This document shows, piece by piece, positions 18,975 through 61,202 of a DNA stretch of 64,000 nucleotides. Below the pieces are notes generated by a model. That model was not told where the DNA came from. It did no database searches and was given only the letters and a program-made list of their open reading frames with translations. The DNA is from an uncultured Bacteroidales bacterium (lineage in GTDB: Bacteria; Bacteroidota; Bacteroidia; Bacteroidales; Muribaculaceae), in NCBI GenBank assembly GCA_902768435.1, contig CACXLJ010000015.1:4253-68252 (forward strand). Reading direction: 5' to 3'. Positions within the stretch are counted from its first letter, which is position 1. Each line of letters opens with the position of its first letter. The translations under genes and the position numbers were made by a program.

Positions 18975-19760
18975 ATGAAAAAGTTATTTAAACAATCTAT
19001 TTTTTTGCTGCTGGCGTTCGCATTGTTTGCGGTGCCTGCCATAGCCGCCGAGGGCGAACTTGATGCCTCGACACACATCAGGTTTGAGGTGATGAATCCC
19101 CAAAATGTGAAACCTGGCGAACTCGCTTTCATCTACATTATTTTGGATAACCCCAATGTGGAGTATGCTTCGATTCAAAGCGAATTTGCCTATCCTCAGG
19201 GCTGGACTGCTGAGAAATTCTCTCAGAAGGATGCCGGCATTGGCACAAAGCCCCTCAAGGCATATTGCCAGCTTATTCCCGAAGGCCGTCTCGATGAGTA
19301 CTATAACGAAGAGACCGAAGAAAGCTTTACTGCCTTCACAATCATTGGCAACAATCCTACCGAGAGCACATTCCGCTTTGCAATCTATGACAGCAACGCC
19401 GAAGGCAAGACGATTGCTGTGGGCAACGATGCCCTCGCGCTGTTTGCCGTCCGTGTTCCCGCCGATGCCACTCCCGGCAATTACACTATCAATGCTTATG
19501 ACATCTGGCTTGCTACGGGCGAGCCCAACAATGTGGGCGATGGTGGCATCGACCCGTTCACATTTACGGTCACGGTCAATGAATCGTTCATGCAAGGCGA
19601 TGTGAACGGCGACGGCGAGGTGGATGTGCGCGACATTACTGCCCTTATTGATGTGATCATGAACTCGATCACCGATAACCCCCGTGCCGATGTGAATGCC
19701 GACAAGGATATTGATGTGCGCGACATCACCGCCCTCATCGACATCATCATGAACAGCTGA
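18975..19760 (+). CDS. Secreted cohesin-like + C-terminal dockerin type I protein
   Basis: Signal peptide; beta-rich domain ('VKPGE..FIYIILDN...IQSEFAYPQG...FAVRVPADATPGNYTI'); two Ca-binding repeats GDVNGDGEVDVRDITALID / ADVNADKDIDVRDITALID. The dockerin call is secure; the cohesin call is by pattern only. Confidence 0.75.
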   Translation: MKKLFKQSIFLLLAFALFAVPAIAAEGELDASTHIRFEVMNPQNVKPGELAFIYIILDNPNVEYASIQSEFAYPQGWTAEKFSQKDAGIGTKPLKAYCQLIPEGRLDEYYNEETEESFTAFTIIGNNPTESTFRFAIYDSNAEGKTIAVGNDALALFAVRVPADATPGNYTINAYDIWLATGEPNNVGDGGIDPFTFTVTVNESFMQGDVNGDGEVDVRDITALIDVIMNSITDNPRADVNADKDIDVRDITALIDIIMNS

Positions 19761-19839
19761 TTCTCGGTAGAGCAGTAAACTAGTAGAATTGTAAAGTAGA
19801 TACTAGAAAAGCTGTGTAACTATTGAATCAATACACTCT

Positions 19840-19887
19840 GTAGGGTCGCCACCTGTGGCGACCGAATGATGCCATTCATGGCGACCG
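19840..19887 (+). repeat. REP-like palindrome (GTAG type)
   Basis: gtagggtcgccac-ct-gtggcgacc, with a second tggcgaccg at 19879-19887. Confidence 0.55.
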
Positions 19888-19922
19888 CAACTGCAAAATA
19901 CAATTTTTCACCATTCAATACC

Positions 19923-19958
19923 CAGAGGGGCGGTATCACTTGCCGCCCCTCTGCTTTT
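19923..19958 (+). terminator. Intrinsic terminator
   Basis: cagaggggcgg-tatcacttg-ccgcccctctg followed by ctttt. Confidence 0.75.
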
Positions 19959-20133
19959 ATGCCTAAAGGTCAATTTGCAGGTAATCTCTTGAACCAGAAA
20001 GGAGTTATCTCCCCATGGTAGGGGCGTTTGGTGGCTTATTCCATTTTTAATATGCAAAAAAGTGACTTATTCCATTTTAGGATTTTGTGGATATTTTTTC
20101 TTGCAAGAATTTCATAATTTCAGAAAAAAGTAG

Positions 20134-20141
20134 TAAATTTG
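20134..20141 (+). promoter_or_regulatory. Bacteroidota -7 promoter element for the island operon
   Basis: TAAATTTG, about 330 nt upstream of the first CDS. Confidence 0.55.
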
Positions 20142-20471
20142 CAATGTGAGAAAATAGATTTTTGCCTCTTATCAGTCATGGTCTATCACTCACAGCCCAC
20201 GTCGAAGTGTCGCAACCATTTGTAGGGTCGCGTGAAGACCGAGGGTGGGAAAGACATATAAAATAAGGCGTTTTCTGAACGCTTTGGTTTTGACCGTATA
20301 AGAATCTCGCAAGTTCTTTTATAGTGAAAGTCAAAAACAAAGCAACGAGAACGCCCCGTAGGGTGATAATTTTCCCCTCTTGACCATCAAGGGGTGAGTT
20401 ATATATCATCGACGTGGGGCTTTCAGCGTTGCTCGTTCTAACTTTCCGGGCAATGCGAGAGCCTTTATACG

Positions 20472-23233: not shown

Positions 23234-23323
23234 TAGACTTGCAATATGATTTTCATCTAAGACACCGATAGTGAGACTAAGGGAATCTAGATTGATATTT
23301 ATTAGATTATTTAGAACGAATTT

Positions 23324-24103: not shown

Positions 24104-24117
24104 TTCTAATATTATAT

Positions 24118-26467: not shown

Positions 26468-26469
26468 TC

Positions 26470-26631: not shown

Positions 26632-26643
26632 GATTTATATACA

Positions 26644-26946: not shown

Positions 26947-27079
26947 TGTTGGCTTAAGGTGGCTTTTGCTCTTGTGAGCTTTTAATTGTTCTTGTGAAAT
27001 TTCTTGGGGGGGGATGGGGTGAAATTCGGTAATAATGCCTAACTTTGTGCAAATTTTTATTATAAAGTTAGATAGAGAT

Positions 27080-28814
27080 ATGTCGATTGATAAAATTATA
27101 GCTGAATCTACGGCGCAGGCTGTGCAGGCTCTGTACGGCGTGGAAGTTGCCGTGGATAGTATTGTTCCGCAGACTACCAAGAAGGAGTTTGAGGGCAACC
27201 TGACGATTGTTGTGTTTCCGTTCCTGAAGGCATCGCACAAGCGCCCCGAGGACACTGCGCAGGAAATTGGCGACTACCTGGTGGCCAACTGCGAGGCTGT
27301 GGAGAAATATAATGTGATCAAGGGTTTCCTGAACATTACCATCAAACCGAGTTTCTGGACGGGCGTGCTGCAGCACATCGCGCAAGAGCCCGACTATGGC
27401 ATGAAACCGGTGACTGACGACAGCAAGCTGGTGATGGTTGAATACTCGTCGCCCAACACCAACAAGCCGCTGCACCTGGGCCATGTGCGCAACAATCTGC
27501 TGGGTTACAGCCTTGCCAAGATTCTGGAGGCCAACGGCAACAAGGTGGTGAAAACCAACATTGTGAACGACCGTGGCATTCACATCTGCAAGTCGATGCT
27601 GGCCTGGCTCAAGTGGGGCGAAGGCGCTACTCCCGAGTCCACTGGCAAGAAGGGCGACCACCTGATTGGCGACTACTATGTGCTCTTTGACCAGCACTAC
27701 AAGGCCGAGGTGAAGCAGATTGCCGCCGAGCAGGGCATCGGCGAAGAAGAGGCCGAAAAGCAGTCGACCCTGATGCACGAGGCTGCGCAAGATGAACGAG
27801 TGGGTGTATGCCGGTTTCGACGAGACCTACAAGCGCATGGGCGTGTCGTTTGACAAGATATATTATGAGAGCGAAACCTATCTTGAAGGCAAGGAAAAGG
27901 TGCTCGAAGGCTTGGAGAAAGGTGTGTTCTACAGGAAAGAAGATGGCTCGGTGTGGGCCGACCTCACGCCCGACGGCCTCGATCACAAGCTGCTGCTGCG
28001 CAGCGACGGCACATCGGTCTATATGACGCAGGACATTGGCACCGCCAAGCTGCGCTATCAGGACTATCCCATCGATCAGATGATATATGTGGTGGGCAAT
28101 GAGCAGAACTATCACTTCCAGGTGCTCGCACTGCTGCTCGACAAGGTGGGCTTCAAGTGGGGCAAGGACCTGATTCACTTCTCCTATGGCATGGTGGAAC
28201 TGCCCAGCGGCAAGATGAAGAGCCGTGAAGGCACCGTGGTGGATGCCGACGACCTGATGGACGAGATGATCGACACCGCCCGCACCATGAGCAACGAACC
28301 TGGCCGTCTGGCCGGCGTGCCCGACGAGGAGAAAGAAGATGTGCTGCGCATGATAGGCCTGGGAGCCTTGAAATACTTCATCCTGAAGGTTGACCCGCGC
28401 AAGAACATGCTCTTCAACCCGCAGGATTCAATCGATTTCAACGGCAACACTGGTCCGTTTATCCAGTACACCTATGCCCGCATCCAATCGGTGCTGCGCA
28501 AGAGCGATGCCGCCGACATGCAGGTCGACATCAGCGCCTACGAACCCATCGAGAAAGAGGTGGAACTGGTGCAGCGTCTTGCCGACTATGTGGGCGTGGT
28601 AACCGAGGCCGGCAAGTCGTACAGTCCTGCCGTGATTGCCAACTATGTGTATGAACTGGCCAAGGCCTACAACCAGTTCTATCACGACTGCAGCATCTTG
28701 AAAGAAGAGAATGCCGTGACGCGCGCCTTCAGGCTGCTGCTGAGCCAGACGGTGGCCAAGGTGCTCAAGAGCGGATTCGGTCTGCTGGGCATCGAAATGC
28801 CATCGCGCATGTGA
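27080..28814 (+). pseudogene. argS: Arginine--tRNA ligase, split in two frames by an apparent short deletion at ~27785
   Basis: EYSSPNTNKPLHLGHVRN (HIGH-type), YMTQDIG, GKMKSREGT, FNGNTGPFIQY, LGIEMPSRM. Frame 1 reads to ...LMHEA; frame 2 resumes at RKMNEWVYAG. Confidence 0.9.
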
Positions 28815-28865
28815 TTGGCATGGTTATTGCAATTACAAAAGGAAAACAACTAAAATTTTAAAGAT

Positions 28866-29747: not shown

Positions 29748-30944
29748 ATGAAATCAATCAAAACAAAAGCGATATTGGTAGCCACCCTGCTGTCAACAAG
29801 CCTTGCGGGTATGGCCCAAGACGACATCAAAGACAATGAATTCAACCCCATAACCACCGGTGTGACCTCGCTGAGCATCACCCCCGATGCTCGCGGTGCC
29901 TCGATGGGTGACCTGGGTGCCGCCACCGAGAGCGACTGCAACTCGCAGTTCTGGAATCCATCGAAATATGCATTTGCCTACAGCAGTGCGGGCGTTGCCC
30001 TGTCGTACACCCCTTGGTTGCGCAAGATTGTGAACGACATCTTCCTTGCCAACCTGTCGGGTTACTGGAAACTGGGTAGCGGCGACAATCAGGCAGTGAG
30101 TGCCTCGATGCGCTATTTCTCACTTGGCGAGATTCAGACGACCGACGACGGCGGTAGCGCCATGGCCAGCATCAACCCCTTTGAAATGGCGTTTGATGTG
30201 GGTTACTCGCGCAAACTGAGCGAGAAATTCTCGATGGGCGTTGTGCTGCGCTACATCTATAGCGACCTGGGCTATTCGGAGTATTCATCGACCGAGCGCA
30301 CCAAAGGCGCTTCGGCATTCTCGGCCGACATTTCGGGTTACTTCACCACCTATCCTGTGATAGGCCGCAACGAGTGCCAGTGGTCGCTGGGTTGGAACAT
30401 CTCCAACATCGGCTCGAAAGTGTCGTACGACAACGGCGACAACCCCGCCTTCTTGCCCGCTAACCTGCGATTGGGTACTGCTTTCACCTTCCCGCTTGCC
30501 GACTATCACAACCTGACGCTGGCTGTTGATGCCAACAAACTGCTGGTACCCGTGAAGCCACGCCTCTCGGACTTCGACAATCAGGAAGATTATGAGAAGG
30601 CGCTGCAGGAATGGAAAGACGAATCGTCGATTTCGGGTATCTTCAAGTCGTTCCACGACGCTCCCGGCGGTGCCAAAGAGGAGTTGCGCGAAATCACCTT
30701 CTCGGTAGGTGCCGAGTATGCCTATAACCAGCAATTCTTCTTCCGCGCCGGTTACTTCCACGAGAACAAGTGGAAAGGTAACCGCAACTACTTCAGTCTG
30801 GGTGCCGGCTTCTCGCTGAATGTGCTCAAGATTGATGCCGCCTATATGATTGCCACCGCACAGAACAGTCCGCTCGACCAGACGCTGCGCTTCACCTTGT
30901 CGTTCGACATGGAGGGCATCAAGGGCCTCTTTGGCAGGAAATAA
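29748..30944 (+). CDS. porV: Type IX secretion outer-membrane shuttle PorV
   Basis: 'NPITTGVTSLSITPDARGASMGD...WNPSKYAF...SYTPWL...GYFHENKWKGNRNYF..LDQTLRFTL'; directly upstream of ispF. Confidence 0.92.
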   Translation: MKSIKTKAILVATLLSTSLAGMAQDDIKDNEFNPITTGVTSLSITPDARGASMGDLGAATESDCNSQFWNPSKYAFAYSSAGVALSYTPWLRKIVNDIFLANLSGYWKLGSGDNQAVSASMRYFSLGEIQTTDDGGSAMASINPFEMAFDVGYSRKLSEKFSMGVVLRYIYSDLGYSEYSSTERTKGASAFSADISGYFTTYPVIGRNECQWSLGWNISNIGSKVSYDNGDNPAFLPANLRLGTAFTFPLADYHNLTLAVDANKLLVPVKPRLSDFDNQEDYEKALQEWKDESSISGIFKSFHDAPGGAKEELREITFSVGAEYAYNQQFFFRAGYFHENKWKGNRNYFSLGAGFSLNVLKIDAAYMIATAQNSPLDQTLRFTLSFDMEGIKGLFGRK

Positions 30945-33973: not shown

Positions 33974-34726
33974 ATGAAAAGTTTATTTTTTTCAATTACG
34001 TTAGCTCTGGCATGCTGGAGCAACATGATGATGGCAGAAATCCATGAACACGAGTATGTCCCCCTGCTCGAAGATGGTCGCCAATGGATATATTCATTTG
34101 AAGAAGGCATTTGGCTGGGTGAAGAATTAACAACAAGAATAGGGTTTTATAAACTTTATCTTCAAGGTGATACAGTAATAGATGGGAAAAAGCACTTAAA
34201 ATGCTACTATAAGTCTCTTTCTTCAAATAGTTATGGCTGGGCAAATGAAGACTATCCAATTGCCTATATGAGAGAGGAAGGGAAATTGATTTTCGCTGTA
34301 GATAATGAAAATAATGGCTTTTACGATGAACCCCTCTACGGAGGACCTGAAGGTTGTATTTATAATTTTGAGGACATGAGTAATGTTGAGGAAGAATTTA
34401 AGGATATTATCGATGTCTTCATAGCGGGAAAATGGAGAAGAGTCTTTAAATGGTATTATAATACTGATATTATTGAAGGCATAGGCGCTGATGGTTTTGG
34501 TGATTTGCTCTATCCTGTTCAACATGGTACAACATGCTCACATTGTGACTATAAAGACGATGATGGTCTGGTGATGATGCTGGACAAGGATGGCAATATT
34601 TTATACAAGGGTTCAGCCTATGTCAAATATCTTGAGACAAAACCCGCTGGCGACGTGAACGGTGACGGCAAGGTGAATGTCTCTGATGTCGCTGTTCTCG
34701 TCAACCTCATCCTCGGCATCAAGTAA
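33974..34726 (+). CDS. Secreted protein with a single C-terminal dockerin-type repeat
   Basis: Signal peptide; 'YVPLLEDGRQW'; ends GDVNGDGKVNVSDVAVLVNLILGIK. Confidence 0.75.
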   Translation: MKSLFFSITLALACWSNMMMAEIHEHEYVPLLEDGRQWIYSFEEGIWLGEELTTRIGFYKLYLQGDTVIDGKKHLKCYYKSLSSNSYGWANEDYPIAYMREEGKLIFAVDNENNGFYDEPLYGGPEGCIYNFEDMSNVEEEFKDIIDVFIAGKWRRVFKWYYNTDIIEGIGADGFGDLLYPVQHGTTCSHCDYKDDDGLVMMLDKDGNILYKGSAYVKYLETKPAGDVNGDGKVNVSDVAVLVNLILGIK

Positions 34727-46832: not shown

Positions 46833-49280
46833 CTAACTGATGCCCAAGATGATGTTGATTAGTGCCGACACATCGCTCACATTCACACGGCCGTCGCCGT
46901 TCACATCGGCAAGGGTTTCGTTCATCGGCGTGATGCCCAGAATCATGTTGATGAGAGCGCTCACATCGCTCACATTCACGCGGCCGTCGCCGTTCACATC
47001 GCCTTGTGCAATGGTTTGCTCCACAGGATAGTGGGCATAGAATGCCTTGATGTGAATGGCATGGTCGCCAGCAGTGGCGGCAGCCTTGTCGGGCACAAAG
47101 CGAATTTCGCGCAGCCTGATGGGGAAGGTGGCGAGCTGGTCGGCGCCTCCCAACTGGTCCATGTCGATGTGCAGGGTGTAGTCATTGCCAGGCTCAAAGC
47201 CGTTGCCGCCATTCTCAAATTTCTGGTAGTTGATTGAGGTGAACTGGTTGTTGCGCACATCAATCTGCACATACTCGATGGGCAGCGTGCTGTTGAAGGT
47301 GAGCCCTATGGTGTCGGGCAGGCTGTAGAAGAAGCGGTCGGTGAGCATTCTCACATATGGTGCCCGTGAGCTGGTGTAGGTGAAAGTGACATTGCCGTTG
47401 GCATCGAGGGCGAGTTCTTTAGCGCCCGAACCCGAGAGCATCCATCCCTCGGTCCATTGCTGAAAAAAATAGGGTGCATTGCTGATTTCGACAGTCACGC
47501 TGTCGGTATCGAGAAATTCGCCAATTTGGCAAGAGATGCGTGTGCTGCCGTTTTTTAATCCCTTGATCTTGCCGTTGTTGATTGTGGCGACAGTGGGGTC
47601 GTCAATGCTCCAGCCTAGTTGGGTGGCATCGTAGAAGTAGGTTTTGCCGGCTACTGTGGCGGTGACATCAACATCCCACTCGCGGTTGTCGACTAGCATC
47701 ATGGGGCTGACTGCAATGGCGGGCTGGGCGGGCAGTGTGACGATGGGCACGGTGGCAGCGATGCCGTTGTAAGTGGCTGTGAGTGTGCCTGTAAGTGCAT
47801 TGCCACCTGCCGTGATAGTCTCGCCGTTGGTGGTACCAATGGCCTCGTCACAGGTGAGAGTGAAACCCTTTAGGTCGTCGTTGATGAGGTCGCCATACTG
47901 GTTGTAGGCCAGCACTTGCGGGGTAGCCGAGGCATAGATGGGCAGTTGCACCTTGTGCTCGGCAAAGCGAATAGTTGCTACCTCGTTGTCGATGGGGGCG
48001 ATAGATTCGAGCAGCCAGCCGTTGGACACGGCTCGGGGACTACCCTCTGTGGTCTTGTTGATGATGGTGCCGCTTGCCAGCATCTCGGCCGAGCCGCCGG
48101 CATCGTAGTTCACCACTTCGCTCACATCGGGGTAGAGACTTTTGAGAATCTCGCACATGACGGTGGTGGAACAGCCTGCCGAGAGGCCATATTGCGGATG
48201 GGTTGACTTGTCGATGACAATCATATAGAGTTTTCGTCCGTCGGCACTGCAGCCATAGCCTGTGCGGGAGTAAATCTGTGAGTTATAGGCCTCGTCGGTG
48301 TTGCGAATGGTGAGCTCGCCCAGGTGCATGACCGGGGCATTGCCCTCCACCATGTTCTCGATCCATGGGGTGATGTGCTCACTCTCGGGTTCGTTGGTGG
48401 TCCAGCCTTGTGTGATGGTGATGGTGTCGCCCACAGTGTGTGTTGCCATGGCCTCCTTGAACGACCCGGTGGCAGTGAGGCAGGCCTCGTAGTTGCCCAG
48501 CGTCTGTCGGTCGGCGTCATTTACGATGTTCACGATGACGAAGGTCATAGGTTTGCTCACCTGCCAGCTGCTGCCTTCGGCCAGCGCCAGATAATAGTTG
48601 TCGGTGTGGTTGTTGCCGGTTTCGTCGGCACTCACCCAGTTGGTCTCGAACTGGCGAGTTCGGCCGAACGCTTCGTTCCACAGGCACATCTCGTTGTTGC
48701 GGTTGCGGCGGTTCACCTTGTTGATGGCGAGCGGATTATCGAGTTTTGGCGAGGTGAGTTGAGCAGCCCAGGTGAAGTGGCCGAATATGAGGTTCTTGTC
48801 GTGGTCGATGGCTGTTCCGGCCGTTTTCGATGGTCCGCCATCCCAGGTGTCGTTAGCGTTGTTGGTGTTGGTGTAGATGGTGTCGTTGCGCACCACAGCA
48901 CCGTAGGGCGAGCCCAACATGTAGATGCTTGAAGTGCCTTGTCCGCTCACGCACCAGAAGTTGGCATTGCAGCCTGCCAGCACGCGTTTCGACGGGGTGG
49001 AGTAGCGCTGGGCGGCCGTGGTGAGCAGTTCGGTCTTGCCCACGATGCCTTGCCCCTGCATGGTTTCGATGCGGTTGTAGGGATTGTCCATGTCGGCCTC
49101 AAGCAGGTAGACATTGAGGGGATAGCCCGGAATGCGAATGATGGTGTTCATGATTCCCGGCCCCAATTGCCGCCTGAACAGGGTGTCGACTTGGTATTCG
49201 CTGCCTCCAATCACCACCTGCGCCATAGCAGTGCAGGCAACGAGAGTAAACAGCAAAGGAAGTAGTATAGTTCTTTTCAT
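46833..49280 (-). CDS. Phosphodiester glycosidase (NAGPA/DUF2233) family + Ig-like (Big_2) + dockerin
   Basis: Signal peptide; CNANFW; SRTGYG; NYDAGGSAEM; PRAVSNG; 'WSIDDPTVATI' Big_2; two GDVNGDG repeats. Confidence 0.8.
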   Translation of the reverse strand: MKRTILLPLLFTLVACTAMAQVVIGGSEYQVDTLFRRQLGPGIMNTIIRIPGYPLNVYLLEADMDNPYNRIETMQGQGIVGKTELLTTAAQRYSTPSKRVLAGCNANFWCVSGQGTSSIYMLGSPYGAVVRNDTIYTNTNNANDTWDGGPSKTAGTAIDHDKNLIFGHFTWAAQLTSPKLDNPLAINKVNRRNRNNEMCLWNEAFGRTRQFETNWVSADETGNNHTDNYYLALAEGSSWQVSKPMTFVIVNIVNDADRQTLGNYEACLTATGSFKEAMATHTVGDTITITQGWTTNEPESEHITPWIENMVEGNAPVMHLGELTIRNTDEAYNSQIYSRTGYGCSADGRKLYMIVIDKSTHPQYGLSAGCSTTVMCEILKSLYPDVSEVVNYDAGGSAEMLASGTIINKTTEGSPRAVSNGWLLESIAPIDNEVATIRFAEHKVQLPIYASATPQVLAYNQYGDLINDDLKGFTLTCDEAIGTTNGETITAGGNALTGTLTATYNGIAATVPIVTLPAQPAIAVSPMMLVDNREWDVDVTATVAGKTYFYDATQLGWSIDDPTVATINNGKIKGLKNGSTRISCQIGEFLDTDSVTVEISNAPYFFQQWTEGWMLSGSGAKELALDANGNVTFTYTSSRAPYVRMLTDRFFYSLPDTIGLTFNSTLPIEYVQIDVRNNQFTSINYQKFENGGNGFEPGNDYTLHIDMDQLGGADQLATFPIRLREIRFVPDKAAATAGDHAIHIKAFYAHYPVEQTIAQGDVNGDGRVNVSDVSALINMILGITPMNETLADVNGDGRVNVSDVSALINIILGIS

Positions 49281-50244: not shown

Positions 50245-52665
50245 TCACGACAAGATGATGTTGATGAGTGCGCTCACATCGCTCACATTCACCTTGTCGT
50301 CGCCGTTCACATCGGCACTGCTCTGGTTCATAGCCTCTAATCCCAGAATCATATTGATGAGCGCGGCAACATCGCTCACATTGATGCGTCCATCGCCATT
50401 CACATCGCCCGTGATGGTGGCTGCCACATTCGGGTAGTGGGCATATAATACCTTGAGGCTGATGGAGTAATCGCCTTTAGGCGCCGACTTGCTTGGCGAG
50501 AATTTTACCTCTTTCAGCGTAATGGGGTAGGTGCCCACCTGGTCGATTCCTCCCATTTGGTCAAGGTTGATGCGCAAGGTGTAGTCCTTGTTGGCTTCAA
50601 AACCTCCCTCAGGCTCATATTTCTCATAGTTGAGTGAGGTGAAATAGCGGTTGCGGGCATCGATTTGAACATAATCAATTGGGATGGTGCTGTTGAAGGT
50701 GAGAGCAATGGTGTCGGGGAGGCTGTAGAAGGTGATGTCCTTCTTGAGCGAGAGATAGGGCGCCCGCGACGAATTGTAGTAAAACGACAGGGTGCCGTCG
50801 GTGCTGAGCACGAGGTTGTTAGCACCCGAGGCTTTCAGTGTCCAATCGTTCCACGATTGTTTGAGAAATGGGACTGTGCTGATTTCGACCGTGACGCTGT
50901 CTTGGTCGTTGAATTCTCCAATTTGACAAGTGAAGCGTGTGCTGCCATTGCGCTTGGGCATGAGCACCCCGTTTTCGATGGTGGCTATCGATGGGTCGTC
51001 GATGCTCCAGACGAGTTTCGACGGGTCGTAGGTGTAAGTTTTGTCGTTGACTGTGGCGGTTACCTCGATGGGGTAGTCGCGGCTGTCGATGAGCAGCGGT
51101 TTTACCTTGATGGCGGGTTGTGCCATGAGGGTGGTGACGGGCAGGGTTGCCGTCATGTCGCCAAGGTGTGCAGTGAGTGTGCCGTGCGCCTCTTGTCCGG
51201 CGGCAATGAAGGTGTCGCCCTCGGTGCTGCCTATCGCCTCGTCGCAGGTGAGGGTGAAGCCTTTCACATCCTCGTTGATGAGTTCGCCTATTGCGTTGTA
51301 ACCCAGGATTTTCGGCACATAGCTCGAGTAGATGGGAGCCTCGGCTTTGAAGTCGGCAAAGGCAATAGATGCCACGGTGTTGTCTTCTTCGCCAACGGCC
51401 TCGACCATCCATCCGCAAGCCACTGCTCGGGGTGTGCCTTCGGTGGTGGTGCTGATGCACTCGTCGCCCACAATCATCATGGCCGAGCCACCGGCATCCA
51501 TGGTGGTGATGTCGGAAACATAGGGGCATAGTTGCTGCATGATGAGGCACATGGTCTCGGTGTTGCAGCCCGCCGAGCGGCCATATTTCTTGCTGAGCGA
51601 CATGTCGATGACCATCATGATGAGGTGCTTGCCGTCGGCGCTGGCGCCATAACCGGTGCGTGAATAAACCTTGGTGTTATAGTCGAGATCGTAGTTGTTA
51701 TTAGTGAGTTCGCCATTTTTCATGACCAGGCCTATGCCCTCTACCATGTTTTCGATTTCAGGACGATCGCCGCTGCCTTGCGCCGTCATGCCATAGTTGA
51801 TGGTGATTTCATCGCCCTCGGCGAGCGCCGCCATCACTTGTGCCTGTGTGCCCGAGCAGGTGATGCAGGCGTCGTAGTTGCCCAGCGTCTGCCGGTCGGC
51901 ATCGCGTACAATTCTGGTCACGACAAAAGTCATGTCGTGGTTGATTCCCCACCGCTCGCCCGCTTTGAGCGTGAGATAGTAGTTGTCGGTGTGCGTATTG
52001 CCTCGCTCACCAGTTGATATCCAGTCGGTTTCGAACTGGCGTGTGCGGGTGTAGGCGGGTGTCCACAAGGTAACATGATTGAGGATGCACCGGCGGTTCA
52101 CAGTCTCGAAAACGATGGGAGCATTGAACCTCTCGCTGGTGATGGTGGCGCTGGGTATGATGTGGTCGAAATAGAGTGTTTTGTCTCTTGAAATGGCCGT
52201 GCCTCCTGTGTAACCTGGGCCATAGCACCAGTTGTCTTCGTTGGTTTCGGCGTTGACACAGATGCTGTCGTTCCTGATTACTGAGCAGTAGGGGGTGCCG
52301 AGTTCAAACTCGCGTGGGGGCCACTCGGCCGAAACGCACCAGAAGTTGCTGTTGCATGCCACAATGGGTCTCTTGGTTGCCGTGCGATTGCGTTTCACGG
52401 CATTGAGCAGCAACTCGGAACGGCCCACAGTGCTGTAGCCCAGTGTGGTTTCAACACGGTTGTTGGGGTTGTTGAGGTCGGTTTCGGTAATGTAGATGTT
52501 GAGCGGATAATCGGGAATGCGCACAATGGTAGTGACCATGCCAGGTCCTACCTGGCGGCGGTATAGTGTGTCGGTCTCATAGGTGTTGCCGCCGAGTGTG
52601 ATGGCAGCAAAACCGTTGAGGGCGAACAGGGTAATGAGCAGGGAGGAGTGGAGGAAGCGTTTCAT
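50245..52665 (-). CDS. Phosphodiester glycosidase family + Ig-like + dockerin (paralogue of 46833-49280)
   Basis: Same architecture: CNSNFW, SRTGYG, MDAGGSAMM, PRAVACG, two dockerin repeats; ATG 52665 preferred. Confidence 0.8.
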   Translation of the reverse strand: MKRFLHSSLLITLFALNGFAAITLGGNTYETDTLYRRQVGPGMVTTIVRIPDYPLNIYITETDLNNPNNRVETTLGYSTVGRSELLLNAVKRNRTATKRPIVACNSNFWCVSAEWPPREFELGTPYCSVIRNDSICVNAETNEDNWCYGPGYTGGTAISRDKTLYFDHIIPSATITSERFNAPIVFETVNRRCILNHVTLWTPAYTRTRQFETDWISTGERGNTHTDNYYLTLKAGERWGINHDMTFVVTRIVRDADRQTLGNYDACITCSGTQAQVMAALAEGDEITINYGMTAQGSGDRPEIENMVEGIGLVMKNGELTNNNYDLDYNTKVYSRTGYGASADGKHLIMMVIDMSLSKKYGRSAGCNTETMCLIMQQLCPYVSDITTMDAGGSAMMIVGDECISTTTEGTPRAVACGWMVEAVGEEDNTVASIAFADFKAEAPIYSSYVPKILGYNAIGELINEDVKGFTLTCDEAIGSTEGDTFIAAGQEAHGTLTAHLGDMTATLPVTTLMAQPAIKVKPLLIDSRDYPIEVTATVNDKTYTYDPSKLVWSIDDPSIATIENGVLMPKRNGSTRFTCQIGEFNDQDSVTVEISTVPFLKQSWNDWTLKASGANNLVLSTDGTLSFYYNSSRAPYLSLKKDITFYSLPDTIALTFNSTIPIDYVQIDARNRYFTSLNYEKYEPEGGFEANKDYTLRINLDQMGGIDQVGTYPITLKEVKFSPSKSAPKGDYSISLKVLYAHYPNVAATITGDVNGDGRINVSDVAALINMILGLEAMNQSSADVNGDDKVNVSDVSALINIILS

Positions 52666-52843
52666 ATATGTAGATTTTATTTTCAAGTTGTAAATTTACT
52701 AAATATTTTATTTTTCTTGAAATTAATTGGGCAAAATTGTCCTGATTTTGTGTGAAACGCAAAAAAGTGCGAGAAAAATGCGTCATCACACAATAAATAT
52801 AGGAAAGTTGCGTTAAGAGTATTAAAACAATCATGATTGAAGT

Positions 52844-55800
52844 ATGAAATTTTTGAAAAAAACACGATATGTGAAGTACGCCTTGGCGCTCGTGCTGCTG
52901 TTTGCCGCTATGCCTAAGGCCGCAGCCTTTGATGCCTCGCTCAAGGCCGACTCGTCGCGTCTGTCACAGGGCCGATGGGTGAAAATCAAGGTAACCGAGA
53001 CGGGAATACATGCCATCACAGCCGCCGATGCCCAAAAGTGGGGCATGAGCGACCTGAGCAAGGTGCATGTGTTTGGTTTTGGTGCTGCAAGGATTCCTGA
53101 CAGGCTGACCCAAGACATTCCCGACGACTTGCCTCAGATTCCTGTGGTGCGTTGCGGCGACAAAATCTTGTTTTATGCCCAAGGTCCCGTGCAATGGAAA
53201 CCTACATCGCTGAATGTGAACTTTACTCCCAGCCAGCATCCTTACTCCACGGCCGGTTACTACTTCGTGACCGACGACAGCCGATTCACTGATGTGGAGA
53301 TAACCAGGTCGTCACAGCCAGTGAGCGGTGCTGTGCAAAACAAGGTTTTCGGCCGCGTGTATCATGAGCAGGAACTGGTGAATCCGGGCGAAACCGGCCA
53401 TCAGTTGCTGGGCGAGGATTTCAGCATCACTACTACCCAGACCTTTAACTTTAACCTTGAAGGCTATATCGATGGGGGTAATATCAACATCTGCACAAAC
53501 TTTGCCGCCAGCATGTCGGATGGCATGAACACAGGCCAGACGGGCAGACTCACTTACAAGTACAACAATATCAATTTGCCCTATAACTCAATCTATGACA
53601 GGTTGACGCAGGTATCAAACAACACTACTCAGCACTATTTGACAACGAACTCGATCAAGTCGTTCACCATGACGGGAACCAAGAATCTTGCCTATGAGGT
53701 GACTTTCAATCCAGTGGGAACCGTCTATCTTGCTCGTCTAAACTTCATTGCAGTGAATTACGAACGCGCTTTGGCGTTGTACAATGGCGTGATTGACTTT
53801 GGCCAGTATAATGCCAAAAGCAACATGCAGTATCAGATATCGGGCTGCACCGACCACACCCATGTGTGGGATGTGACCACACCCCACAAACCAGTGGCAA
53901 TGAATGTGAATCTCGAGGGCGACAAGGCCTCGTTCAGTCCCGAACTGGGCAATAGGGAATTTGTGGCCTTTGATGAGGGTGGCAGCAGCTATCCCTCGCC
54001 CGTGATGGTGGGTGTGATGAAAAATCAGAACCTGCATGGCGAGCCCACCCCCGACATGATTATCATCAGTCACAGAGAATATATGTCGCAGGCTCAGCGC
54101 CTTGCCGACATGCACACCACAATCGACTCGATGCGGGTGCTCGTGGTTGACCAGGACGATGTGTTTGATGAGTTTTCGAGCGGAACTCCCGATGCCCTTG
54201 CCTACAGAATGATGTGCAAACTCTTCTATGACCGTGGCAAAGATGCCGAGGGTCACCAGTTGGGTTACCTGCTGCTCATGGGCAATGGCACCTACGATAA
54301 CCGACAGATTACTACCCGTTTCAAGACTGCTTCCTATCCGGCTTTGCTAACCTGGCAGACCGATGCAGGCGACAGTGAAATCACTTCGTATGTGAGCGAC
54401 GACCCCCTGGTGGTGCTCGGCGACAATACGGGTCCTGATTTTTATAACAGCAACATGAGCATTGCTGTGGGCCGCTTCCCGGTGAAGAGCGTGGCCGAGG
54501 CAAGAGTGATGGTCGACAAAGTGATCAAATATGTGACCAATGCCGATAATGGTGCATGGAAAAACAATGTGCTGTATGTTGCCGACGACGGCGATAAAGG
54601 CAACCACATGAGGCATCAGGAATCGGTCATCGATGTGTCAACCAAGCACCACGGCGAAGACATGGTGAACACCCGTGTCTACCTTGATGCTTTTGATGAG
54701 GTGAGTGCTGGTTCGGGCCGCACTTATCCCGATGCACGCACCAAGATGTACGGCACGCTGAAAGAGGGTGTTGTGTGGTGGAACTATGCAGGTCACTCGA
54801 GCACCAATGTGTGGACCGACAATGGCCTGCTCATGCGTGGAGACATCGAGCAGAACCTGTTCTACCGTCATCTCCCCATCTTGATGACCGCCAGTTGTGA
54901 GTTTACCCGTTTCGATGAGATCGAAGAGTCGGGGGGCGAACAAATCATACTCAACTCGCGTGGCGGTGCAGTGGCATTGATAAGCACGGCACGCCAGGTG
55001 TACATGGACAACAACCTGCGCCTGCACAACTCGATAGCAGAATTTGTTTATACGCACGATGAGCAAGGCCTTCCACTGCGTGTGGGCGACATTGTGCGCA
55101 AGGGCAAGAACAATACAAGTCGCGACAGCAACAATTCACGCTTCCTGCTCTTCGGCGACCCAGCGATGCGTCCAGCATTCCCGACCTATAAAATCAAGGT
55201 CGAGACCATCAACGGCAAAGCAATTGACCCCAACAATATGCCAGTGTTCCAGGCTCGCCAGACGCTCACTTTTGCCGGTTCGGTGGTCGATGCTAAAGGC
55301 AACAAACTGAGCGACTTCAATGGCCCGCTGGTGTCGACGCTCTTCGACTGTGAACAGTCGGTCATCACGCATGGCTACAGCACTCCAAACGACAAAGGCG
55401 GACAAGTCATCTACAACGACCGTTTTAACAAGTTGGCCGTGAATGTAGATACAGTGACCAACGGCTCATTCTCGTTCAGGCTCACCATCCCGTCGGAGGT
55501 GATGGCCACCTACGACAACTTCCAGCCTGCGTGGATCAGCCTGTACGCCTATGACAACCACTCGTTGTCGAACAAAAAATGGAACGGCGGTTTGCGTGAG
55601 GCGCAAGGCTCTAACGGTGACTTCTATATCTATGGCTACGACGACACGATTGTGGCCGACACCATAGGTCCCGAAATCAGTGTGTTTGCCATCAACTCGG
55701 TTGACTTCAAGGATGGTGACGATGTGAACGAGTCGCCCCTTGTTCTCGCCACAGTGCGCGATAAGTCGGGCATTAACTTGTCGACAAGCGGCATTGGCCA

Positions 55801-56326
55801 TTCTATCACGCTCACGCTCGATGATGAGAAGACCTTCAATGATGTGACCTCGTTCTACACGCCTATCGCCACCGACGAGGGTACGGCAGGCGACATCAAC
55901 TATGTGCTGCAGAATCTTGAGAATGGCCACCACACGCTCACAATCAAGGTGTGGGATGTGTTCAACAATTCATCGGAAAAAAGCGTTGTCTTCAATGTGG
56001 TGACAGGCCTGAAACCCGACCTGTATGACATCTATACCGACGCCAATCCCGCATCGGTTTCGGCCAACTTCTATGTGAAGCACAACAGGCCCGATGCCGT
56101 GCTTACCATCAGACTTGAAATCTATGACCTGCTTGGACGCATGGTGTGGAGCACCACCCAAACGGGTCGCTCTGACCTGAATACATCGTTCCCCATCAGT
56201 TGGGATTTGACCGACATGAGCGGCCACCGGGTGCCTCGCGGCATCTATGTTTACCGCGCTTCGGTATCGACCGATGGCGAACGCGAGGCTACCAAGTCGC
56301 GCAAGATTGCGGTCACTGCCCAATGA
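52844..56326 (+). CDS. porU: Type IX secretion sortase PorU (peptidase C25 family), copy 1
   Basis: GRWVKIKV..GI N-terminus, QNLHG..PDMII, EFSSGTPD, YVSDD, GRFP, NYAGH...ASCEF His/Cys pair, LFGDPA, T9SS-type C-terminal domain. Confidence 0.9.
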   Translation: MKFLKKTRYVKYALALVLLFAAMPKAAAFDASLKADSSRLSQGRWVKIKVTETGIHAITAADAQKWGMSDLSKVHVFGFGAARIPDRLTQDIPDDLPQIPVVRCGDKILFYAQGPVQWKPTSLNVNFTPSQHPYSTAGYYFVTDDSRFTDVEITRSSQPVSGAVQNKVFGRVYHEQELVNPGETGHQLLGEDFSITTTQTFNFNLEGYIDGGNINICTNFAASMSDGMNTGQTGRLTYKYNNINLPYNSIYDRLTQVSNNTTQHYLTTNSIKSFTMTGTKNLAYEVTFNPVGTVYLARLNFIAVNYERALALYNGVIDFGQYNAKSNMQYQISGCTDHTHVWDVTTPHKPVAMNVNLEGDKASFSPELGNREFVAFDEGGSSYPSPVMVGVMKNQNLHGEPTPDMIIISHREYMSQAQRLADMHTTIDSMRVLVVDQDDVFDEFSSGTPDALAYRMMCKLFYDRGKDAEGHQLGYLLLMGNGTYDNRQITTRFKTASYPALLTWQTDAGDSEITSYVSDDPLVVLGDNTGPDFYNSNMSIAVGRFPVKSVAEARVMVDKVIKYVTNADNGAWKNNVLYVADDGDKGNHMRHQESVIDVSTKHHGEDMVNTRVYLDAFDEVSAGSGRTYPDARTKMYGTLKEGVVWWNYAGHSSTNVWTDNGLLMRGDIEQNLFYRHLPILMTASCEFTRFDEIEESGGEQIILNSRGGAVALISTARQVYMDNNLRLHNSIAEFVYTHDEQGLPLRVGDIVRKGKNNTSRDSNNSRFLLFGDPAMRPAFPTYKIKVETINGKAIDPNNMPVFQARQTLTFAGSVVDAKGNKLSDFNGPLVSTLFDCEQSVITHGYSTPNDKGGQVIYNDRFNKLAVNVDTVTNGSFSFRLTIPSEVMATYDNFQPAWISLYAYDNHSLSNKKWNGGLREAQGSNGDFYIYGYDDTIVADTIGPEISVFAINSVDFKDGDDVNESPLVLATVRDKSGINLSTSGIGHSITLTLDDEKTFNDVTSFYTPIATDEGTAGDINYVLQNLENGHHTLTIKVWDVFNNSSEKSVVFNVVTGLKPDLYDIYTDANPASVSANFYVKHNRPDAVLTIRLEIYDLLGRMVWSTTQTGRSDLNTSFPISWDLTDMSGHRVPRGIYVYRASVSTDGEREATKSRKIAVTAQ

Positions 56327-56445
56327 GGCTGTTGAATGGTTTTGTAGATACCTTGACGAACGATAATGGAAGAACATTTTGTTTGTTAAACAAAAAATGA
56401 TTATTTTTGCACTTTGATATATATAGATATTTAATATTAACATAG

Positions 56446-57096: not shown

Positions 57097-57101
57097 CTGC
57101 T

Positions 57102-57680: not shown

Positions 57681-57716
57681 TATTGAAGAAAAATAAATAA
57701 CTAAACAGATACAATT

Positions 57717-60700
57717 ATGCTAAAAAAGAATTTTCTAAAGTTTGCAGGTATGGTGTTGCTGGCAATGGGTGCCATCTCCAGCGCACAGGCATTGAGCCTG
57801 TCGACCTTTACGACAACATCCAAGTTGGCCAATGGACACTGGGTGAAAATTCAGATTCCTGAGAGTGGTGTTTATGAGATCACTTATGACGAACTCAGGG
57901 ATATGGGATTCAATAATGCTAATAGTGTTAGGGTCTACGGTTGTGGCGGCTATATGCTCAGCGAGGTGCTCGACGGGTCGCAGCCCGATGATCTGGTTCA
58001 GGTTCCTGTGCAGCGTTATGGCGACAAGCTTTGCTTCTATGCCAAGGGCCCGGTGAGTTTCTCTTTTGACGATCTGACTTCGACATCGCCCCATTTCTCG
58101 CGCACAGTGAATGCTTATTCTCAGTATGGCTACTATTTCCTGACCGAGAACATTGGCAATGAACTTTCGGTGAATGTGTCGTCGGCAACTCCCTCAACTG
58201 GAACGATAGGACATGCATCAAGCTACGATTACACCTATCATGAAGCAGAGTTGACTTCACTCACGCTTTCGGGAAAGAATCTCCTGGGTGAGGTGATTCC
58301 TGCGCCTGATAATTTCACATTGCCCTATTCGCTTCCTAACAGGGAACCGGGTTCGCCTGTGACTGTGACAGGCTGTGTTGCCGCCTCGATTTCGCCTAAT
58401 ACTTCAAGCATTACCGTGTCGGGTTATGTGAAATCGTACATGAACTCTGGCAGTGAAAGAGACACGCTGAGTTTTACGAGTTCTTCATCACGCATCTATA
58501 GTCTGACGGGAGAGATAGCCTATAATTATGCTACTCCAACGACCACGATTACTCCTAAGCGCGATCAAGACAATGGTACAATTGATTTTGGTGTGACTTG
58601 TTCGAGTGGAACAACAGGGGGTACTGTAACCAGAGCCTATCTTGATTATTGCATTTTGACTTATCTTCGCCAAAATGTGATTGGCGACGATGGCCAGTTC
58701 AGAATGAATCTGCTCAAGGTGACTCCTTCTGACCGTATTGACCTCCCCAATGCATCGCAAAATCTGGTGGTGTGGAACATCGACAATGAATCCAACCCTG
58801 TGCAATATAACTACAGCGATTATACTGGCGGTTCGACTCCAGTGAAGGCGTTCACCCCGGGTTACACCAAGAACTGGACTCAGTTTGTGGCATTTGACCC
58901 CACGATGACGCTGAAAAAGATTACGGCCTATGAGGATGTCGCAAACCAGAACATCCATGGTCTGCCGAGCCCCGACATGGTTATCTTGACCGACAAGGAG
59001 TATCTGGAGCATGCCGAGCGTCTGGCTCAGATGCACCGTGAGCATGATAACATGATTGTTCATGTGGTGGAGCAGGGACAGGTGTTCAACGAGTTCTCGA
59101 GCGGTACGCCCGATGCTATGGCAGTGCTCCTGATGAACAAGATGTTCTATGACCGCAACAAGACTAAATTCCAACACTTCCTGGTTTTGGGTTGCGGTTC
59201 GTTTGACAACCGTGGTATGATTTCGAACAAGCCAAACCGTATTATCACTTACCAGAGCGATAACAGTCACGATGGTGACAAGACCTATGTGTGTGACGAC
59301 TTCTTCGGTCATCTTGCCGATGATTCGGGACACGATCCTAACGCAGACAAGCTGCTCATAGGCGTGGGCCGCATGCCTTCGATCGATGCCGACGAGGCTC
59401 GTACCGATGTTGACAAGACTATTAACTATGTGACCAATCCTGATTATGGTGTGTGGCGTAACAGCGCATTTGTTGCTGCCGACGATTATAATTCCGGCAT
59501 GCACACCTTCCAGGGCGATGCCGCTGCCGAACTCATGGAAACTGACCTTGATTTAGGTATAAATGTCGACAAGGTGTATGTCGAGATGTATCCCCGTGCT
59601 TCTGAAACAAGCGAACCTGGTTCGACACTCTCAAAGCGCACAACACTCATAGGCCGTGAAAAATGGAAAGAAGACTGGCTGCGTGGCGAGTTCTTCGCTT
59701 CTTATGTTGGCCACTCGGGCGGCGGTATTTTCACCAAAGAGGCAAAATTGTGGAGAACTATGGATGTGAAGAGCACCAACAACCAGTTCTTGCCCATCAT
59801 GACCACAGCCTCGTGCGATGTGGCACAATATGACTCTGATTCACGCGGTATTGCCGAGCACATGTTCCACTATCCCAATGGTGGTGCCATTGCGCTGATG
59901 ACCTCAACCCGCAGCGTTTATGCCGCTGAGAACGACCCGCTCAACCGAGCATTCATTCGCGGTCTGTTCTCGTTCAACGAGACAGGTGTGATGCCCACTA
60001 TCGGTTATGCCTACATGAAGGCTAAGCAGTATAAAGGCACTTCTTCGAACGCCAACAAGATGAGTTTCTGTCTGCTGGGTGACCCTGCTATCAAGGTCAA
60101 TTATCCTAAGCCCTACTTCAAGGTGACTTCAATCAACGGTACCGATGTGACTGCAACCAATGCCTCGGCTGTGTCGGTAGCTCCATTGACTAAACTCGAG
60201 GTACACGCCAAGGTGATGAAACCAGACGGCTCGGGTGTGAACACTGCTTTCAACGGCGATGCAACGCTCACGCTCTATGATGTGAAGAAATTCTATAAAT
60301 CTTATAAATTCATGGAAGACAAGGTGTGGAAAACCCGCCGTATTCACTATCCGCGCAATTTGCTCGCACAGGTTTCGGGCCGCGTGGTGAATGGTGAATT
60401 CACCGGTTCGGTGATTGTTCCCCGAAATCTGGTGGCTCAGAACGATACTGCCATGATCAGGATTTATGCTCATCAGGACAATAGCGAAGAGATGGTGAAC
60501 GGATATAGCGACAAGATTAAACTGCTGGCTTACGACGAAGCCACTGCCGGCAGCGACTCTAACGCACCGGTAATTACCGAAATGTACTTTAACGATGCTC
60601 AGACCTTCAGCGAGGGCGCTACAGTGCCCACAAACTCGGTGCTCTACATCAAGGTGACCGACGACCTGTCGGTGAACATGCAGTCGGTGTCGATGGCAGG

Positions 60701-61202
60701 TGTCATGTCGCTTGTCATGGATAACGGCAAGTTGAGTTATCCCGAGGTGAGGAACTTCGCTCACATGAGCGACGAGGGCAAGCTGCTCTCAATCGCCTTC
60801 CCCATGAACGGTCTTACCGAGGGCGAGCACATGCTCACCTACACCGTGTATGATGCTGCCGGCAACATTGCAGTGCGTTCTATCTCGTTTGTGGTTGATC
60901 CTGCCTCCGATATGGCGCTCGATGTACAGGAAGATCCTGTGATCACCAAGGCCACTATCGACATGACCACCAACATGAAGAATGCTCCGGCTGTGACGCT
61001 CAAGATTACCGATGCCACCGGCAACCTGGTATTCAAGACCGATGTCACTTCGTTCCCCTATGAGTGGAATCTCAAGGATAAGAATGGCAAAAAGGTTCCT
61101 GCAGGTCTTTACCGTTACTTCGGCAGCTACAACGACGGACTCGGCACCTATGGCGGTACCGACATTAAGACGCTTGTTGTTGTTGACCCTGTGAACAACT
61201 AA
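57717..61202 (+). CDS. porU: PorU-like C25 peptidase, copy 2
   Basis: GHWVKIQI..GV, QNIHG..PDMVI, EFSSGTPD, CDDFFG, GRMP, YVGH...ASCD His/Cys pair, LLGDPA, T9SS-type C-terminal domain. Confidence 0.85.
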   Translation: MLKKNFLKFAGMVLLAMGAISSAQALSLSTFTTTSKLANGHWVKIQIPESGVYEITYDELRDMGFNNANSVRVYGCGGYMLSEVLDGSQPDDLVQVPVQRYGDKLCFYAKGPVSFSFDDLTSTSPHFSRTVNAYSQYGYYFLTENIGNELSVNVSSATPSTGTIGHASSYDYTYHEAELTSLTLSGKNLLGEVIPAPDNFTLPYSLPNREPGSPVTVTGCVAASISPNTSSITVSGYVKSYMNSGSERDTLSFTSSSSRIYSLTGEIAYNYATPTTTITPKRDQDNGTIDFGVTCSSGTTGGTVTRAYLDYCILTYLRQNVIGDDGQFRMNLLKVTPSDRIDLPNASQNLVVWNIDNESNPVQYNYSDYTGGSTPVKAFTPGYTKNWTQFVAFDPTMTLKKITAYEDVANQNIHGLPSPDMVILTDKEYLEHAERLAQMHREHDNMIVHVVEQGQVFNEFSSGTPDAMAVLLMNKMFYDRNKTKFQHFLVLGCGSFDNRGMISNKPNRIITYQSDNSHDGDKTYVCDDFFGHLADDSGHDPNADKLLIGVGRMPSIDADEARTDVDKTINYVTNPDYGVWRNSAFVAADDYNSGMHTFQGDAAAELMETDLDLGINVDKVYVEMYPRASETSEPGSTLSKRTTLIGREKWKEDWLRGEFFASYVGHSGGGIFTKEAKLWRTMDVKSTNNQFLPIMTTASCDVAQYDSDSRGIAEHMFHYPNGGAIALMTSTRSVYAAENDPLNRAFIRGLFSFNETGVMPTIGYAYMKAKQYKGTSSNANKMSFCLLGDPAIKVNYPKPYFKVTSINGTDVTATNASAVSVAPLTKLEVHAKVMKPDGSGVNTAFNGDATLTLYDVKKFYKSYKFMEDKVWKTRRIHYPRNLLAQVSGRVVNGEFTGSVIVPRNLVAQNDTAMIRIYAHQDNSEEMVNGYSDKIKLLAYDEATAGSDSNAPVITEMYFNDAQTFSEGATVPTNSVLYIKVTDDLSVNMQSVSMAGVMSLVMDNGKLSYPEVRNFAHMSDEGKLLSIAFPMNGLTEGEHMLTYTVYDAAGNIAVRSISFVVDPASDMALDVQEDPVITKATIDMTTNMKNAPAVTLKITDATGNLVFKTDVTSFPYEWNLKDKNGKKVPAGLYRYFGSYNDGLGTYGGTDIKTLVVVDPVNN

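Follow-up and report, generated by a model that had tools for sequence, protein, structure and literature searches.

How does a secreted protein that ends in a dockerin reach the surface of a bacterium with two membranes? The question is raised by a window of 64,000 nucleotides (the whole stretch of DNA analysed here, positions 4,253 to 68,252 of contig CACXLJ010000015.1) from an uncultured Bacteroidales bacterium of the Muribaculaceae, in which four proteins with Sec-type signal peptides terminate in dockerin repeats and in which PorV and two copies of PorU, components of the secretion system of type IX (T9SS), are also encoded. The source genome, here called G000 (assembly GCA_902768435.1), is a 2.75 Mb draft that is 99.9% complete, and the window corresponds to G000:C15:4253-68252; labels such as C2 and C17 refer to contigs of G000, and G016, G046 and the like to comparison genomes. 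Close relatives of the window proteins are found in rumen metagenome-assembled genomes labelled Muribaculaceae, Bacteroidales or Prevotellaceae. Judging from sequences and predicted folds, we give a probability of roughly 0.7 to the reading that these proteins take part in a cohesin-dockerin surface display that is anchored, and possibly also exported, via the T9SS. The features observed directly in its support are the modules and their positions, the replacement of the T9SS C-terminal domain (CTD) by a dockerin on orthologous cargo, the cohesin fold, the co-occurrence of cohesin and dockerin across genomes and a complete T9SS.

Dockerin-tailed proteins in the window and the genome

All four window open reading frames (ORFs) match the Pfam model Dockerin_1 (PF00404) above its gathering score of 22.9 bits at the extreme C-terminus, and each of them starts with a signal peptide of the Sec type, as judged by direct reading of the translations and a hydrophobicity heuristic score; the preliminary description of this DNA was right on both counts. 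No T9SS CTD was found in any of the four, either in the Pfam scan or in the genome-wide lists of matches to the CTD models TIGR04183 and PF18962. The first protein (18975..19760, plus strand, 261 aa), designated P0001, is a candidate cohesin-dockerin adaptor, made up of a signal peptide, a predicted cohesin fold at residues ~27-203 and a VDVRD-subtype dockerin with two complete repeats (30.7 bits, residues 208-256 of 261). Two others, both on the minus strand, are paralogues sharing 54% identity and the same architecture. The ORF at 46833..49280 encodes a NAGPA dockerin cargo of 815 aa, where the signal peptide is followed in the Pfam scan by a NAGPA phosphodiester-glycosidase domain, Ig-like modules and a VNVSD-type dockerin of two repeats (52.7 bits, residues 760-812 of 815). 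Its paralogue at 50245..52665 also carries a C-terminal dockerin of two repeats (46.0 bits, residues 760-812 of 813); this ORF is open to 52686 (TTG), and its true start is likely the ATG at 52665, at which the signal peptide begins.

The fourth protein (33974..34726, plus strand) is a secreted protein of 250 aa, with no recognised domain found in its body and with a single C-terminal dockerin repeat, in other words half a dockerin (PF00404, 24.5 bits, residues 225-247 of 250, covering only profile positions 1-23). When a dockerin is taken as two tandem Ca-binding loop-helix F-hands of ~22 residues each, this protein has one of the two, and the other three window proteins have both. It belongs to a set of five paralogues in G000; those on C8 (C8:70628-71458 and C8:71738-72487) and C18 (C18:22847-23665) share its N-terminus and likewise have one repeat only. 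The members of this family measure ~250-276 aa, with near-identical N-termini ("...SITLALxCWSN(T/M)M(M/I)AEIHEHEY..."), and the window member lies in a low-GC stretch. Such half dockerins may pair with one another or may be non-functional. With two NAGPA proteins with Ig-like modules, one cohesin-dockerin protein and one protein without a recognised domain, the remark that an obvious glycoside hydrolase is missing among the four is broadly correct.

The dockerins of the window belong to a much larger set. Searching G000 with PF00404 gave 131 matches, with full two-repeat dockerins scoring up to 59 bits, and a motif census gave 122 dockerin ORFs, 116 of them with a signal-peptide-like N-terminus. 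The last dockerin repeat begins 22-26 residues before the stop in ~90 of these 122 ORFs, and it is found 22-61 residues from the stop in ~100. A chance origin of the window dockerins is ruled out, because ~110 further ORFs of G000 end in the same C-terminal module. Two main subtypes were distinguished, VNVSD in ~75 proteins and VDVRD in ~29. At the DNA level, the dockerin-coding stretches of ~103 dockerin genes have a median best-hit identity of ~82% to one another, and in 32 of the 103 the similarity runs more than 30 nt beyond the stop codon; examples of such shared 3' ends are G000:C2:159830-161458 with C5:64925-67375, and C7:138838-140535 with C24:31224-35027. These similarities hint that cassettes composed of a dockerin and its 3' flank may have been spread by recombination.

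The cargo itself was inspected by a Pfam scan of the 114 dockerin ORFs that encode at least 140 aa and a signal peptide, 104 of which match Dockerin_1 at E <= 1e-5. The most common family is the BspA-type leucine-rich repeat (LRR) LRR_5, with 37 proteins. Peptidases are represented by Peptidase_C10 with the I69 prodomain (7), M6 (3) and S8 (1), and other families by NAGPA (4), CotH (3), GHL10 (3), alpha-amylase (3, with CBM26 in 5), GH16 (2), GH53 (1), Endonuclease I (2) and GDPD (1); CBM3 was not seen among the families listed. Hence 37 LRR_5 proteins and 11 peptidases stand against ~10 domains of carbohydrate-active enzyme type, and plant-cell-wall glycoside hydrolases do not dominate. The repertoire is that of Bacteroidales surface and T9SS cargo rather than that of a cellulosome.

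Dockerins in the position of the T9SS C-terminal domain

It had been remarked that the dockerins stand where a T9SS CTD would normally be, and comparison with G016, a dockerin-free genome of the same genus, proves this to be literally true. In G016, the reciprocal best match of the NAGPA protein at 46833-49280 is L051:1486-3948, a protein of 820 aa with 57% identity over residues 8-779, which ends in a textbook CTD ("...IYNVAGALV...GIYVVVANGYAIKVLVK" / "...IYNVAGALVSTDSSASVAPGIYVVVANGYAIKVLVK") at the position of the dockerin. The same holds on a larger scale: of the 23 canonical-CTD cargos sampled from G016, 13 have a dockerin-tailed protein as their best homologue in G000, and 10 of those 13 pairs cover at least 50% of the protein body at 31-59% identity. 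Only two of the G000 homologues of the 23 cargos retain a canonical CTD, and three end in a short tail that is described below. In the full-length pairs examined, homology typically extends from the N-terminus to a sharp junction, beyond which G016 has ~76-84 residues of CTD and G000 has ~59-66 residues of dockerin. Since the homology between the two genomes breaks at this junction, the dockerin occupies the CTD slot on orthologous cargo.

The numbers of the two modules are inversely related within the genus. G016 has no dockerins and 32 TIGR04183 CTD matches, G046 has 33 dockerins and 15 CTD matches, and in G000, 131 dockerin matches stand against 8 matches to TIGR04183 at E <= 0.001, or 9 at E <= 0.1. 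A first conclusion from the latter figure, that G000 is almost without T9SS cargo, had to be corrected, as 18-20 more proteins end in a compressed tail to which the models are blind; the dockerin/CTD contrast between genomes is real, yet less extreme than the TIGR04183 counts imply. As a side observation, two tiny ORFs (C17:10365-10751 and C22:4768-5136), each composed of a signal peptide, ~40 residues and a classic CTD, lie directly 3' of dockerin-tailed C10 peptidase genes. That they are relics of CTDs that were swapped out is not supported, given that they have signal peptides of their own; they may be relics, carriers or decoys that supply a free CTD.

The direction of the exchange was considered in a survey of 61 genomes of the family, 19 of which are dockerin-positive and 42 dockerin-negative; here 87 of the scored dockerin candidates belong to G000, versus 131 in its own-genome search. 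Judged solely by the 42 of 61 genomes that are dockerin-free, the CTD would be the ancestral state and the dockerin the derived one. Beyond the family, 120 other Bacteroidales families were surveyed with a single genome each, and dockerin-rich genomes were found to be rare but not unique, with first-look counts of 173 candidates in G164 and 87 in G110, of which at most 48 were scored, and with 15 in G135 and 13 in G147. As G164 and G110 belong to two unrelated families, large dockerin expansions arose or spread more than once.

Putative cohesin partners and possible routes across the outer membrane

The absence of any anchored cohesin protein from the genome had been named as the finding that would speak against a surface assembly system; in fact, tailed cohesin-fold proteins were found in G000. 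The protein P0005 (G000:C17:44140-44886, 249 aa) starts with a signal peptide, continues with a ~170-aa domain and closes with a tail of ~45 aa at the C-terminus, and the 29 sequences of its homologue alignment are all annotated "hypothetical". Its AlphaFold model has a mean predicted local distance difference test (pLDDT) score of 81, with most 10-residue blocks of the sandwich at ~85-97. The top 36 Foldseek matches in the PDB are nearly all cohesins, of types I, II and III, at probability 1.00 (4ums at E 2e-7), with a TM-score on the target typically of 0.6-0.75. The window protein P0001 shares 29% identity with P0005 (E 1e-19); the blocks of its beta-sandwich mostly reach pLDDT ~80-94, and its top Foldseek matches, at probability 1.00 and with TM-scores of 0.65-0.76 on the target, are the cohesins 2jh2, 6kgf and 5n5p. 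On these models, both domains are cohesin-type beta-sandwiches (jelly-roll) whose nearest solved structures are cohesins, and P0001, in which the predicted cohesin is followed by a VDVRD dockerin, looks like an adaptor. These candidate cohesins would bind the dockerins in a Ca-dependent manner.

Two paralogues of P0005 with the same architecture lie in tandem at C2:53327-54052 and C2:54217-54957. Two longer proteins, C17:57447-59291 and C17:59486-61564, combine a signal peptide, BspA LRRs, a dockerin, a cohesin-like module and a classic type A CTD, the last scoring 92 bits with a custom CTD hidden Markov model (HMM). The genome has six cohesin-like matches, all single modules, of which four belong to ~250-aa proteins and two to proteins of 614-692 aa. 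Behind each of the cohesin-fold modules found in G000 stands either a dockerin or a tail of T9SS type, and in P0001 and both C17 proteins the dockerin is fused to the cohesin module. A multi-cohesin scaffoldin with a cellulose-binding carbohydrate-binding module (CBM) was not found in G000, where more diverged cohesins could have escaped.

A profile built from the cohesin domain alone, A2, was run on the same 61 family genomes. It matches six of them (G000, G046, G035, G023, G008 and G006), all dockerin-positive, which gives 6 of 19 dockerin-positive versus 0 of 42 dockerin-negative genomes. The corresponding one-sided Fisher p of ~5e-4 is overstated, as related genomes are not independent, though the six represent five genera. 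Two genomes, G035 and G023, moreover have cohesin-like matches a short way from dockerin matches on one contig; to judge from coordinates and ORF lengths, a single ORF or neighbouring ones probably encode both, and in G035 a CTD match follows.

The tail of the small cohesin proteins is itself of interest. It is a motif of ~45 aa ("KYYNLAGVES...TTYTDGT...KVIK") that ends 18-20 proteins of G000, many of them giant and adhesin-like. Three of the small (~250-aa) cohesin proteins carry it, and in tails attached to cohesin domains that share 34-94% identity "KAVAGVKYYNLAGVES..PFDGVNVVVTTYTDGTKAASKVIK" is near-invariant. G016 and G046 each have ~20 proteins that end in the same way and, G016 being dockerin-free, the short tail is independent of dockerins. 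Intermediates between it and the CTD score with both custom HMMs, one for the short tail and one for the CTD. One of them is a protein at L221 of G016 ("...IYNLQG...GVYVVRYTDGTAAKVIKH"), and the other lies in the window at 9341..12664 (plus strand), a surface protein of 1107 aa with DUF285, BspA-LRR and Flg_new matches in Pfam. The latter ends in a compressed CTD-like tail of ~50 aa ("...VRYYDLNGR...GIYITSDGRKVVK") that scores weakly with both HMMs, and it is a probable conventional T9SS cargo within the window, a contrast to the dockerin cargo. From these sequences, we infer that the short tail is a compressed CTD and a putative T9SS signal.

The machinery that would read such signals is present. 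The window encodes, all on the plus strand, PorV (29748..30944), the T9SS outer-membrane shuttle for CTD cargo (Pfam PorV E 1.2e-67; NF033710 507.8 bits versus a cut-off of 250), and two paralogues of PorU, the sortase (a C25 peptidase). The first PorU (52844..56326) scores 925.6 bits with NF033707 versus a cut-off of 420 and has its own CTD, seen as a weak TIGR04183 match at residues 1068-1146, and the second (57717..61202) is more diverged (696.1 bits, same model and cut-off). The three assignments made in the preliminary description are therefore real, all lying above the cut-offs of the NCBIfam equivalog models with which T9SS components were identified. Elsewhere in G000 are SprA (C21:7599-14816, 2,739 bits), PorK (C27:52166-53536) and PorM (C27:54669-56201). 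The further suggestion that the dockerins go with an "expanded" attachment apparatus did not survive comparison, as both copies of PorU were seen in each of the five related genomes tested, one of them dockerin-free; two copies were found in G016 (0 dockerins), G046, G035 and G001, in the last with the second copy split across contigs. A link between dockerins and PorU duplication was rejected since dockerin-free G016 also has two PorU, and so was a second PorU dedicated to the short-tail class, since G035 has two PorU and no short-tail match. The duplication of PorU is a family-wide trait outside the dockerin system.

How, then, would the dockerin cargo get out? According to a review (PMC9251779), proteins pass the outer membrane through the T9SS in the folded state, and their CTD has to be folded as well. 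For Sec cargo that lacks a CTD there are few options: a carrier made of a cohesin and a CTD, direct recognition of the cargo, vesicles or lysis, or retention in the periplasm. In the display that we favour, cohesin proteins would be exported by SprA and PorV and fixed to the cell surface by PorU, and dockerin cargo would be held on these surface cohesins non-covalently and in a Ca-dependent manner. Perhaps pairing takes place already in the periplasm, and the complex crosses the T9SS on the tail of the cohesin, a piggy-back export. This would be the most economical route, because the cargo has lost its only known outer-membrane export signal and a secretin was not found in the 99.9% complete genome; it is also favoured because it needs no new machinery and explains why tails are kept only on minimal, monovalent cohesin proteins. 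Nonetheless, the piggy-back step is to be taken as a tentative proposal. More tentative still is its full extent, namely that ~110 tail-less folded cargos cross the outer membrane on small single-use cohesin-CTD carriers to be fixed there by PorU through the carrier, and that a modular mode in which one tail serves many has replaced covalent CTD sorting in this lineage. Of the three fates that had been envisaged for dockerin cargo, display via a cohesin with a T9SS tail is the one that gains, as cohesin-fold proteins with T9SS-type tails exist, and periplasmic assembly and the dockerin as a sorting signal are less favoured; periplasmic assembly could itself be a piggy-back step.

Several results weigh against the display via T9SS-tailed cohesins. 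The best match of the Pfam cohesin model PF00963 in G000, at C17:44380-44808 on P0005, reaches 14.7 bits versus a cut-off of 24.1, the model was not found on P0001 at E <= 0.01, and Pfam and NCBIfam scans of the cohesin proteins gave no usable match. Because PF00963 stays below its cut-off, the cohesin call rests on predicted folds. It could then be argued that the repeats are isolated Ca-binding, EF-hand-like loops that stabilise C-termini and that the cohesin-fold proteins are unrelated beta-sandwiches, a common fold, the more so as one window protein has half a dockerin only. We regard this as very improbable, as dockerins with both repeats reach as much as 59 bits, the top Foldseek matches are specifically cohesins and not generic Ig folds, dockerins are fused to cohesins, and the co-occurrence of 6/19 versus 0/42 holds across five genera.

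A second difficulty is G001 (85% complete, 230 contigs), which has 33 dockerin matches and in which an A2 cohesin match was not found. This genome favours the view of the dockerin as a new outer-membrane sorting signal, read directly by the T9SS or by another exporter, with the cohesins being later docking sites or unrelated; the location of the dockerin at the extreme C-terminus and its exact replacement of the CTD on orthologues fit such a signal as well. Even so, the cohesin-fold genes are confined to dockerin-positive genomes and are fused to dockerins, which points to cohesin binding and makes a dockerin acting as its own sorting signal less likely, and the copy number of PorU and PorV has no dockerin-specific change. 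Moreover, what the T9SS recognises in a CTD is a beta-sandwich, and a dockerin is built as a small pair of helices that binds Ca. Direct recognition of the dockerin is, on balance, improbable.

The carriers and their tails raise further objections. With six cohesin modules for ~110 cargos and one cohesin per protein, the carriers, being few and monovalent, would be needed in very large amounts if they are used only once, and no precedent for piggy-back export through the T9SS was found in the literature. The short tail is not detected by TIGR04183, PF18962 or any NCBIfam model, its comparison with canonical CTDs by hhalign gave a non-significant probability of 2%, and only the intermediate sequences connect the two. 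The scarcity of cohesins relative to cargo would suit a different scheme, in which the cargo has no dedicated outer-membrane route but stays periplasmic or leaves by vesicles or lysis, to be caught afterwards by cohesins on its own or neighbouring cells. The cargo has a Sec signal and no recognised outer-membrane export signal was found on it, and release of hydrolases in vesicles is well known in Bacteroidales. This scheme too appears unlikely, for LRR adhesins of BspA type make up a third of the cargo, and many of the remaining proteins are proteases with orthologues at the surface via the T9SS; abandoning directed export for ~110 such proteins would be odd, and the precise module-for-module replacement suggests a conserved destination.

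Some other features of the window lie outside this system. The gene at 5705-8926 encodes an unusually long multi-domain oxidoreductase, a 1073-aa fusion of 2Fe-2S, pyridine-nucleotide disulphide oxidoreductase, 4Fe-4S, BFD-like and DAO (FAD oxidoreductase) domains. Between 20472 and 26467 lies a low-GC block (0.40-0.42 versus ~0.52 in the flanks) with genes for a VWA-like protein, a PP2C phosphatase, a Ser/Thr kinase, an ADP-ribosylglycohydrolase, an unknown 369-aa protein and a DUF4407 protein; the block has the look of an island that was acquired and serves signalling or a defence-type function. Arginyl-tRNA synthetase is distributed over two overlapping ORFs on the same strand, 27035-27853 with the N-terminal domain and the start of the catalytic domain and 27792-28814 with the remaining catalytic domain and DALR, owing to a frameshift, an assembly error or a truly split essential gene.

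Comparison with known systems

Two textbook systems appear to be joined in G000, the cohesin-dockerin interaction of Gram-positive cellulosomes and the T9SS sorting of Bacteroidota: cohesin "sockets" would retain the tail, and more than 100 adhesins, proteases and enzymes would have exchanged theirs for a dockerin "plug". This raises the question for secretion research of whether the T9SS can carry non-covalent complexes and, if not, how tail-less cargo crosses the outer membrane; piggy-back export, if true, would offer a modular surface-display chassis for Bacteroidota.

A close parallel is with Ruminococcus flavefaciens, R. albus and R. bromii, known for the cellulosome, single-cohesin anchoring and the amylosome, which also have more than 100 dockerin proteins, few cohesins, single-cohesin anchors and adaptors. 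A class of Firmicutes with many dockerins and few cohesins was likewise recognised in the Hungate1000 collection (PMC6118326), and the best structural matches of the G000 cohesins come from R. flavefaciens and the Acetivibrio, Pseudobacteroides and Clostridium groups. Unlike the Ruminococcus systems, G000 belongs to a diderm whose cargo must cross an outer membrane, with T9SS-type tails in place of sortase or surface-layer homology (SLH) anchoring; its cargo is mainly LRR adhesins and peptidases and not cellulases, its cohesins are invisible to PF00963, and neither a multi-cohesin scaffoldin nor a scaffoldin CBM was found. Given that neither such a scaffoldin nor a cargo dominated by plant-cell-wall glycoside hydrolases was found, the system of G000 would not be a cellulosome sensu stricto.

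Compared with the canonical T9SS of Porphyromonas gingivalis and Flavobacterium johnsoniae, defined by the type A CTD, the PorV shuttle, the PorU sortase and anchoring to anionic lipopolysaccharide (A-LPS), G000 has the complete machinery and the same cargo families (BspA-like LRR, C10 and S8), and its cohesins keep a C-terminal tail. It differs in that most of its cargo bears a docking module and no CTD, so that attachment would be non-covalent and indirect, and in the compressed tail of ~45 aa that takes the place of a CTD of ~80 aa on 18-20 proteins.

The only published proposal that we found of a cohesin protein with a T9SS CTD is the in-silico case of Candidatus Stygibacter (Cloacimonadota), for which a cellulosome-like complex with a CTD-bearing scaffoldin was described (Williams et al. 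2021, PMC8542988). It is likewise a diderm of the FCB group, in which enzymes carry a signal peptide and a terminal dockerin and the T9SS CTD of a cohesin protein would attach that protein to the cell's own surface. There, however, a single scaffoldin of 3,755 aa with tandem cohesins and CBM2/CBM3 serves a handful of dockerin enzymes; G000, a member of the Bacteroidota, has monovalent cohesin proteins of ~250 aa, ~110 cargos and dockerins in place of CTDs on orthologues.

No literature was found on cohesins in Muribaculaceae or on the replacement of CTDs by dockerins. Dockerins in rumen Bacteroidetes bins have been noted in a survey (PMC6071333), and rumen "Muribaculaceae C941" was reported to have many dockerins and GH13 "but without cohesin" (PMC9863278). 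These surveys found the same richness in dockerins and, by HMM, no cohesin, and the dockerins were considered "non-amylosomal" or left unexplained. Cohesins detected by their fold, from a family that standard HMMs miss and that would be new for cellulosome and rumen-microbiome research, may explain this puzzle: unlike in the rumen surveys, the cohesins of G000 were found by predicted fold and are linked to T9SS-type tails.

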